64,000 nucleotides of DNA, taken from positions 1 through 64,000 of IMG/VR virus record IMGVR_UViG_3300021256_000063, one strand, 5' to 3'. The DNA comes from a virus. Its lineage: Duplodnaviria; Heunggongvirae; Uroviricota; Caudoviricetes. The notes below the pieces were generated by a model. It was not told the DNA's origin. It searched no databases and saw only the letters and a list, made by a program, of their open reading frames with translations. Each line of letters starts with the position of its first letter. Position 1 is the stretch's first letter. The position numbers were made by a program, and so were the translations under genes. Below, one piece after another: positions 61,051-61,173 of the stretch.

Positions 61051-61173
61051 CGTATGGTAGCTCAGTTGGGAGAGCAGCTGAAAAAAGAATTCATTAATCA
61101 TGTTCGTGATTATAACAGCGAAACATTCAAGTTATGGGTCAGCGGGTCAGTGGTTCGAATCCATTCCATACGA
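61051..61173 (+). ncRNA. tRNA-like gene with a 57-nt insertion in the anticodon loop (candidate Y-RNA-like tRNA mimic or intron-containing tRNA)
   Basis: Acceptor CGTATGG pairs with CCATACG. D-arm GCTC-AGTTGGGA-GAGC. Anticodon stem GCTGA/TCAGC is separated by 57 nt containing the hairpin TAATCA-TGTTCG-TGATTA. T-arm AGTGG-TTCGAAT-CCATT. Confidence 0.5.

Follow-up and report, generated by a model that had tools for sequence, protein, structure and literature searches.

An array of tRNA and tRNA-like genes

The window analysed here comprises 64,000 nucleotides of a Caudoviricetes phage genome (IMG/VR record IMGVR_UViG_3300021256_000063, positions 1 to 64,000). Toward its end, a series of RNA genes lies behind a sigma-70-type promoter that probably drives the whole array of tRNAs, Y-like RNAs and a Ro-like protein gene (Table 1). 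The array opens with a tRNA bearing the anticodon UUG, followed by two spacers with a recurrent RNA structure, a tRNA-shaped gene with a long arm in place of its anticodon loop, a third such spacer and the gene for a 502-aa protein. Beyond that gene come tRNA-Pro, tRNA-Leu(UAA), another spacer, an 88-nt tRNA-like gene and a second interrupted tRNA-like gene, element B. The long-armed gene, flagged in a preliminary description of the window and called the flagged element hereafter, ends 105 nt upstream of the protein gene on the same strand and is the subject of this study.

The 7-bp acceptor stem of the flagged element is formed by CGTATGG (61051-61057) and CCATACG (61166-61172), with A61173 as the discriminator. 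The D arm (61060-61075) reads GCTC-AGTTGGGA-GAGC with GG present in its loop, the T arm (61149-61165) reads AGTGG-TTCGAAT-CCATT, and G15 and C48, the elements of the Levitt pair, are both present. A perfect 5-bp anticodon stem, GCTGA (61077-61081) with TCAGC (61139-61143), surrounds 57 nt. The Rfam tRNA model, run with lax filters as the Infernal-type check proposed earlier, matched the element exactly and end to end (model positions 1-71) at 47.0 bits, compared to a gathering score of 29 and with an E value of 1.7e-9 for the stretch searched in this way, and in its alignment the 57 nt stood as an insertion where the model has a 7-nt loop. This match is far beyond chance, and together with the sequence it bears out the preliminary description of a tRNA-like gene with canonical acceptor, D and T arms and a 57-nt insert in the anticodon loop. 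Neither ARAGORN in default mode nor Rfam with standard filters called the element; in intron mode, ARAGORN reported tRNA-His(AUG) with a 50-nt intron after position 31. The cloverleaf-plus-hairpin fold has a predicted energy of -26.4 kcal/mol compared to -30.1 kcal/mol for the minimum free energy (MFE) fold, and therefore folding thermodynamics alone does not pick the cloverleaf. A megablast search of the region against phage GenBank records gave no match.

The insert contains a hairpin, named helix H here, followed by TAA and the single-stranded motif CAGCGAA. The hairpin had been noted before with 6 bp; it is there, with a length of 7 bp including one U.G pair. By inspection, a tentative basal stem, GAAT/ATTC, has 5-8 A of the A-tract on its 5' side and 8-10 nt on its 3' side, and the whole layout is common to the inserts of two related loci, L005 (54 nt) and L009 (49 nt). 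Basal stems (P0) look plausible by eye (AAAGGA/TCCTTT, GAAAGA/TCTTTC, GCAAA/TTTGC); P0 reached no significance against composition-preserving shuffles and is retained as tentative.

Pfam divides the 502-aa protein into DUF2828 and DUF7788, a von Willebrand A (vWA) domain with a MIDAS (metal ion-dependent adhesion site) motif, DTSGS, and PHROGs labels it "RNA-binding protein". Over its full length it shares 35% identity with mycobacteriophage proteins of identical Pfam architecture that are annotated "Ro-like RNA binding protein", and its top three structural matches were all Ro60 proteins. The modelled structure thus identifies the protein as a Ro60 homologue with a predicted Ro-like fold. Sequence-only searches of PDB, with the protein or a profile, gave a vWA match alone, and a literature search on DUF2828 function found nothing relevant.

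Table 1. Features of the RNA array in the window, with the parts of the flagged element listed below it.
Feature	Position	Strand	Evidence or remark
Sigma-70-type promoter, TTGACA, 16 nt, TATAAT	60716-60743	+	12/12 consensus match; kept in relatives
tRNA, anticodon UUG (Gln), long variable arm; first array gene	60785-60870	+	ARAGORN; Rfam tRNA 44.2 bits
Spacer-form module 1, TGGGACGC-acg-CAGCAA ... GCGTCCTG	60871-60963	+	
Spacer-form module 2, AGGGACTC-ata-CAGCAA ... GAGTCCTG	60989-61045	+	Ends 5 nt before flagged element; Rfam Dicty_Class_I_RNA 21.4 bits, weak
Flagged element, tRNA-shaped RNA gene with 57-nt arm replacing the anticodon loop	61051-61173	+	Rfam tRNA; ARAGORN intron mode; orthologues
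57-nt insert: A-tract linker, tentative basal stem GAAT/ATTC, helix H, TAA, CAGCGAA, 3' linker	61082-61138	+	
Helix H hairpin, TAATCAT-GTTC-GTGATTA, 7 bp including one U.G	61095-61112	+	Covariation; CM R1 39.7 bits
Single-stranded motif CAGCGAA (family consensus CAGCAA), 3 nt past helix H	61116-61122	+	Unchanged in orthologues
Nominal anticodon loop TTATGGG	61132-61138	+	Hypervariable in near relatives
Spacer-form module in 5' UTR of Ro-like gene, TGTGACAC-aca-CAGCAA ... GTGTCATG, then RBS and ATG	61177-61260	+	
Gene for 502-aa DUF2828 + DUF7788 protein, predicted structural homologue of Ro60	61279-62787	+	
Hairpin-form module in 3' UTR of Ro-like gene, GCGTCATG-atc-GTGACAC-atgca-CAGCAA	62922-62953	+	CM R1 21.9 bits, E 0.004
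Spacer-form module, AGGGACAC-tta-CAGCAA ... GTGTCCTG	63672-63736	+	Rfam Dicty_Class_I_RNA 24.6 bits
88-nt tRNA-like gene, anticodon arm an H-like helix CAATCATGTAAAGTGATTG then CTGCAA	63750-63837	+	ARAGORN alone (Thr or Tyr)
Element B, tRNA-Thr(UGU)-like, 43-nt module copy after nucleotide 28 of anticodon stem	63841-63957	+	CM R1 37.9 bits
Partial spacer-form module, 5' strand and CAGCAA; remainder past window end	63961-63977	+	Complete in L001 and L255
CM R1, covariance model of the module; UTR, untranslated region; RBS, ribosome-binding site.

A recurrent module of helix H and CAGCAA

The core of the insert is one copy of a repeatedly found module made up of helix H (strand b, 5'-NNRTCMTG; strand a, 5'-GKGAYNN), 3 nt and CAGCAA, which is CAGCGAA in the flagged copy. 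A loop of 3-4 nt connects strand b to strand a in the insert form. In the spacer form, strand a comes after a tRNA 3' end, a 40-80-nt loop follows, and strand b stands a few nt before the next gene. Modules were found in tRNA inserts, as stand-alone stem-loops between tRNAs of the array, in both UTRs of the Ro-like gene, and in the closing stems of YrlA-type RNAs described below. The position in the 5' UTR is repeated in many other phages, and the 3' UTR hairpin is kept in L001-L003, L379, L380 and L382.

Among 25 distinct insert-form copies, helix H was 98.3% paired with double changes at 4 of 7 pairs, a result reached by none of 500 shuffles; the retrieval pattern had left the three outer pairs free. 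Judged by this covariation across the family, helix H is a real RNA helix, and C-A-G-C-x-A was invariant in the alignment of the motif. The covariance model matched the window at 61094-61123, 63874-63903 and 62922-62953 (39.7, 37.9 and 21.9 bits), and 51 module copies were found with it across 24 related loci. The helix core differs by lineage with compensation (GKGAY/RUCMUG, AAGAY/RUCUUG, UGGNN/NNCCA), and at its base the helix shows covariation from lineage to lineage (G.U, A-U, U-A) with CAGCAA constant. A DNA-level site, such as a tyrosine-recombinase core or an IS200/IS605-type hairpin, was ruled out because the helix tolerates G.U, covaries, and forms either a local hairpin or a long-range stem enclosing 40-130 nt. 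We also rejected by inspection an opposite-strand promoter at the motif, for which a TATAAT-like box occurs in the flagged copy alone, without support from the family.

The module accompanies genes for DUF2828 proteins in hundreds of phages. When IMG/VR was scanned by RNA motif only, 45 loci had the module inside a tRNA-like gene, and 40 of these 45 tRNA-context loci had a DUF2828 homologue compared to 0 of 74 chance-motif loci, although these counts are not phylogenetically independent. In many lineages the spacer form lies directly 5' of the RBS of this gene, and modules adjoin homologues of 36-47% identity in L005, L006, L007, L008, L009, L011 and Bacillus phage Tsamsa. One lineage version, AAGAYNN-NN-ACAGCAA ... 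NNRTCTTG, is shared by L005, L006, L008, L011 and Tsamsa, and another, TGGNNNN-NNN-CAGCAA ... NNNNCCA, occurs in mycobacteriophage UPIE beside gp53, which is annotated 'Ro-like'. As far as sequence comparison and this synteny across distant lineages can tell, helix H with CAGC(G)AA is a signature RNA module of phage genes for DUF2828-type Ro60 homologues. Neither the membership of the insert in this module family nor the neighbouring gene as the key to it had been recognised in the preliminary description.

Decoding, splicing or protein binding

Five orthologues of the flagged element (L001, L378, L379, L381, L382) come from phages with Ro-like proteins 81-98% identical. Comparison with these phages, a check that had also been suggested, found the GCTGA/TCAGC stem, the other arms and the 30-nt module core (helix H and CAGCGAA) unchanged. 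The nominal anticodon loop occurs in the versions TTATGGG, CATGGG, CAGGG and GCAGG (7, 6, 5 and 5 nt), and the 5' A-tract of the insert varies in length (6-8 nt). Such variation of the loop in both sequence and length among relatives argues that the flagged element does not decode. Element B of the same genomes keeps CT[T/G]GTAA, corresponding to Thr UGU or GGU, so that the wobble base alone switches.

A hypervariable loop and slippage in the length of the A-tract would also fit a decaying relic, a former module-bearing tRNA gene that lost its anticodon loop and is now functionless. The confinement of the CGAA variant to one narrow clade, and the presence of other tRNAs (Asp, His, Thr) at the equivalent position in sister phages, point the same way. 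However, the arms and the 30-nt core are invariant in the very genomes where heavy divergence has affected the loop of the adjacent module in the 5' UTR, and the sole T-stem change, in L382, converts G.U to A-U. Additionally, loop-less analogues adjoin DUF2828 genes that are merely 39-47% identical: L005 has a 120-nt Rfam tRNA match (51.5 bits) beside a DUF2828 gene whose protein is 47% identical, and L009 a 110-nt match (44.6 bits) beside one of 39% identity. Both analogues have the hairpin, TTA and then ACAGCAA or ACCGCA in the loop position, and no canonical anticodon loop. We consider a relic unlikely.

The 45 tRNA-context loci hold 42 unique insert-bearing elements of about 14 kinds, of which one (L018) was judged spurious. 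Binned copies of related elements were found in metagenome-assembled genomes (MAGs) of Lachnospiraceae, one of which (L333) adds a Phe example of an insert-bearing tRNA gene. Inserts interrupt the anticodon stem in its 5' strand, following nucleotide 26/27, 28, 29, 30 or 31. Pairs bridging the insert formed in 54 of 56 cases compared to 24 ± 4 with shuffled partners, a count that is biased because the split point was picked to maximise pairing. When the insert was removed in silico, 38 of 38 elements were called as tRNAs (Thr, His, Val, Pro, Ala and others), element B being a tRNA-Thr, and 31 of the 38 had a 5-bp anticodon stem with a 7-nt loop, U33 and R37 (1.5% in shuffles). A search for intron-less orthologues used junction patterns; the flagged element proved to have an anticodon stem of a common Lys/Asn/Thr/Met type, and for element B one unrelated tRNA-Thr alone was found by this pattern. 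In three orthologues (L043, L063, L090) of the Val-UAC element of L035, the loop ATTACAA is replaced by (A)TTCAAAA(Y), which makes either a 9-nt loop or a 6-bp stem with the anticodon CAA, and thus an orthologous scaffold bears a different 'anticodon'.

Canonical arms of this kind suggest an intron-containing pre-tRNA, that is, a new class of protein-dependent tRNA intron excised by an endonuclease and closed by an RNA ligase, one of three ideas raised in the preliminary description. For the flagged element the product would be the 75-nt tRNA-His(AUG) given by ARAGORN in intron mode, with U33 and G37. The conserved Thr anticodon of element B agrees with splicing, the range of insert positions from 26/27 to 31/32 would be tolerated more easily if the insert were removed, and unexplained tRNA introns occur in Lak megaphages (PMC6784885). 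Those introns resemble the present ones as short inserts in phage tRNA genes and differ in belonging to other phages and other hosts, a comparison made by description only. Our literature search for short phage tRNA introns of the module-bearing kind found nothing relevant. On the other side, the loop of the flagged element is 5-7 nt long, with U33 missing from three of its four versions in close relatives, and tRNA-His(AUG) would have A34, which is unusual in tRNA anticodons. No RNA ligase or endonuclease was found among 28 open reading frames (ORFs) of the window and L053, nor in L030 and L037, the window itself spanning 64 kb of a ~154-kb genome. There is no BHB (bulge-helix-bulge) geometry and no ribozyme match, and splicing does not account for modules that stand alone, be it between tRNAs or in the Ro-like gene's UTRs. 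We therefore regard an intron as rather unlikely in the flagged element, whose loop is not conserved; for siblings such as element B at 63841-63957, the new intron class is still a candidate.

Known introns had been discounted earlier, and our analysis agrees. A group I intron was excluded with an insert of 57 nt compared to a catalytic core of >200 nt (P1-P9) and no Intron_gpI match. A BHB intron of the archaeal or eukaryal type was excluded in the absence of two 3-nt bulges flanking a 4-bp helix. Self-cleaving ribozymes (hammerhead, twister, pistol, hatchet, HDV or similar) gave no match at E≤10. To our knowledge, the BHB motif and its splicing endonuclease are not expected in bacteria. Soma et al. 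in 2007 reportedly described both intron-containing and circularly permuted tRNA genes with BHB-dependent splicing in archaea and in the red alga Cyanidioschyzon. The phage family is like these genes in its non-canonical insert positions, such as 28/29 and 29/30, and in the coexistence of interrupted and permuted versions, whereas the flagged element has neither a BHB nor a usable anticodon loop.

The permuted versions are RNAs of YrlA topology that are closed by the same module. In L007, the space between the module strands is taken up by a T arm, an acceptor hairpin that is closed and 7 bp long, and a D arm; this core matched Rfam YrlA at 39.8 bits, and the MFE fold reproduced the architecture. 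In phage UPIE, an Rfam YrlA match downstream of gp53 is enclosed by TGGACTC-tag-CAGCAA ... GAGTCCA. The pattern ACAGCAA ... GGTTCGANTCC ... TAGCTCA was found at no fewer than 120 IMG/VR loci compared to ~0.4 expected by chance, and 105 of 125 pattern matches had a perfect 7-bp closing helix, leaving at least 97 unique RNAs of this topology. They are split mostly after nucleotide 28 or 29, with at least 19 anticodons, and 57 of 109 have a canonical anticodon arm (1.8% in shuffles), which again speaks for splicing. The shared closing module indicates that insert-bearing tRNA genes and YrlA-topology RNAs are circular permutations of one fold, differing in where the chain is open, at the acceptor stem in the former and at helix H in the latter.

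Genes for Y RNAs neighbour those for Ro60, and their products are tRNA mimics; free-standing YrlA-type RNAs are bound by Ro60 orthologues in bacteria (PMC4201824). In M. smegmatis, RNase P cleaves YrlA within the acceptor loop, and the RNA receives a CCA tail in vivo (PMC4201824). In Thermus phage phiLo, Ro60 binds two Y-like RNAs, Yrl1 and Yrl2, which are encoded upstream of its gene and have a CGAA motif in an internal bulge (PMC12135203; PDB 9L5Y). With a probability of about 60%, we believe the flagged element to be a Y RNA with a non-permuted chain, an open acceptor end and the predicted binding module of the Ro-like protein, and not a decoding tRNA. An effector-binding stem on a tRNA scaffold, the second of the three earlier ideas, is thus the best supported of them, through a conserved module of protein-binding type tied to a Ro60-like gene.

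Like YrlA (RF02553), the flagged element lies beside a Ro60-type gene on the same strand, combines tRNA-like D and T arms, an acceptor stem of 7 bp and a binding stem on the anticodon side, and shows a short conserved purine-rich motif just inside the protein-binding stem. Unlike YrlA, its chain is non-permuted and ends in an acceptor stem without a closing loop, helix H is internal with a GTTC tetraloop cap, and the 5' and 3' ends form no Ro-binding stem. Its motif CAGCGAA has CGAA but not GNCGAAN0-1G, and its partner is of the DUF2828 type, not Pfam TROVE. In its open CCA-type acceptor end and its Ro-binding stem in the anticodon-loop position it is also like processed, RNase P-cut YrlA, although the latter consists of two pieces from a permuted precursor and the flagged element is encoded as a single continuous chain. 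Yrl1 and Yrl2 of phiLo, compared by description only, differ as stem-bulge-stem RNAs that are not described as tRNA-like in PMC12135203.

The flagged element would be transcribed together with the tRNA array from the promoter at 60716. As suggested by its tRNA body and the precedent of M. smegmatis YrlA, it would be released like a tRNA by RNase P and RNase Z, probably CCA-tailed, and it would stay unspliced at ~123-126 nt. Acting as a Y RNA, it would hold the Ro-like ring through the module, and its tRNA-like body may protect the RNA or tether the ring to host factors that bind tRNA or to exonucleases, by analogy to Rsr/Y RNA/PNPase. The fold would be that of YrlA-type Y RNAs, with the chain opened at the acceptor end and not at the protein-binding stem.

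Two other roles have been weighed for a tRNA-like body at this place. As processing punctuation or a cis-regulator, the body would be a site for RNase P and RNase Z and the modules processing or autoregulatory signals, with no trans-acting ribonucleoprotein. That modules begin 3-5 nt past tRNA 3' ends and end 5-13 nt before the next 5' end, and that one abuts the RBS of the gene, agrees with such a role. However, a conserved 57-nt arm is unnecessary for tRNA-like punctuation, and the YrlA-type relatives are free-standing and known ligands of Ro60 orthologues in bacteria, so that we find punctuation improbable. A decoy tRNA, the third of the earlier ideas, would absorb host anticodon nucleases or other tRNA-targeting defences. 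An intact tRNA elbow and acceptor stem in a phage would suit a decoy, but anticodon nucleases read the anticodon loop, which is absent or hypervariable here, and no defence or counter-defence gene was identified adjacent to the element. Nothing in our results supports a decoy, which is very improbable.

Several results weigh against an open-acceptor Y RNA. The module also interrupts tRNA genes with canonical anticodon arms; such arms are kept in many family members, insert-bearing and permuted alike, so that a pure tRNA-mimic model falls short and splicing is hinted at. Rfam YrlA gave no match to the flagged element at E≤10, and the YrlA matches elsewhere lie under the gathering score (39.8 compared to 69). 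The CGAA-containing motif variant is limited to the phage clade of the flagged element, and its orthologues are close relatives, therefore the invariance of their arms is weak evidence of selection. As for the protein, its AlphaFold2 model is moderately confident (pLDDT 67.6), the counted loci are not independent of one another phylogenetically, and two motif-bearing loci, L030 and L037, have no DUF2828 gene within ~5 kb on one or both sides. The module is the putative binding site of the protein encoded 105 nt downstream, an assignment that rests on synteny and analogy.

Elements such as B keep canonical anticodon arms, and therefore a splicing or permuted-gene system remains a candidate for the family. 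It is conceivable, if tentative, that helix H with CAGCAA marks a phage tRNA cleavage-ligation system with the DUF2828 Ro-like protein as the recognition subunit, in which dozens of tRNA genes interrupted or permuted in the 5' strand of the anticodon stem may mature by excision of the module. If true, this would give Ro/Y RNA systems a concrete biochemical role. The family thus raises the question of whether module-bearing tRNAs with intact anticodon arms are spliced or are Ro-bound tRNA mimics.

Returning to the open-acceptor Y RNA, tRNA-mimicking Y RNAs have so far been described in the permuted YrlA form alone, and their function is unclear. This locus has the reverse topology, a normal tRNA gene with a protein-binding module at the site of the anticodon loop. 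The family-wide signature appears to be undescribed; it is short and searchable (a helix, 2-3 nt and CAGCAA) and links DUF2828-type Ro homologues to their partner RNAs across phages of gut Firmicutes, cultured Bacillus phages and mycobacteriophages. Through it, annotation could be extended to hundreds of so far unlabelled phage RNAs and to "oversized" tRNA genes, and Tsamsa and the mycobacteriophages are cultured systems amenable to tests of binding and function.

Dictyostelid look-alikes and other features of the array

Spacer-form modules were the sole sequences here matching the Rfam family Dicty_Class_I_RNA (RF01414), at 60989-61045 and 63672-63736 of the window, 1709-1767 of L061 and 10992-11056 of L035, and none of these matches, with 21-27 bits, reaches the gathering score of 41.5. 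Class I RNAs are eukaryotic, transcribed from Pol III-type genes and reported to be unique to dictyostelids, and their known direct binder is a protein with an RNA recognition motif (RRM) (PMC7919456). Unlike these eukaryotic, RRM-bound RNAs, the phage modules score under the RF01414 threshold. They are like them in a 6-7-bp stem joining the 5' and 3' ends (PMC7919456), a near-identical motif, (C)CUUACAGCAA, directly after the 5' strand, and an AAG start, a CUG(U) end and a length of 42-65 nt; the Class I architecture and 10 of 11 motif positions match, at sub-threshold scores. As a corollary of the cleavage-ligation system, Class I RNAs would be eukaryotic relatives of the phage module. The protein DDB_G0281243, from a Class I RNA pull-down, has no known function.

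The first array tRNA has a 13-nt variable arm and 86 nt in total, and its orthologues in L003 and L004 have 73-75 nt. The 88-nt gene at 63750-63837 may be a more compact member of the module-bearing tRNA family; it had no Rfam tRNA match in the standard-filter scan. Helix H of element B contains one C-A mismatch in the window, where L002 and L003 have a T-A pair.

Standard-length tRNAs with A34 anticodons were predicted by ARAGORN in related loci (L004 3897-3968; L035 9408-9476, minus strand; L098 239-315 and 3756-3828), namely Phe AAA, Cys ACA and Tyr AUA. Those of L004 and L035 score 52-55 bits with Rfam tRNA, and A34 within two-codon boxes is unusual.

The tRNA-Leu(UAA) gene (63207-63587) contains a 297-nt group I intron at ~63242-63538, between anticodon positions 34 and 35, which matched Rfam Intron_gpI at 39.9 bits, under the gathering score of 50. 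Its orthologue in L001, a phage with a 94% identical protein, is intron-less with 90 nt. The intron is present in the window and absent in L001, therefore it is polymorphic, and so probably mobile, among near-identical phages. The tRNA arrays of relatives hold HNH endonuclease ORFs, one IS605 OrfB/TnpB gene and one sub-threshold HEARO RNA match (47.5 bits), at L256 12943-13620, L379 4996-5526, L380 4949-5482 and 5930-6451, L382 6085-7176 and L004 7384-7568. Mobile elements have a hotspot in this tRNA array.

Immediately upstream of the array are genes for a tyrosine recombinase (55036-56082), a PHROG 5732 protein (58122-59318) and an MrpR-type recombinase (59339-60259), in an order kept in L255-L257 and L379-L382. 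The PHROG 5732 protein, function unassigned, contains DGYHRY, which resembles DGQHR/DndB-like domains by eye. In Tsamsa (L429), ~340 nt of unannotated, GC-richer sequence (1990-2330) lie between two modules upstream of the DUF2828 gene; this region contains the motif CACAGCGAA and could be a further structured RNA.

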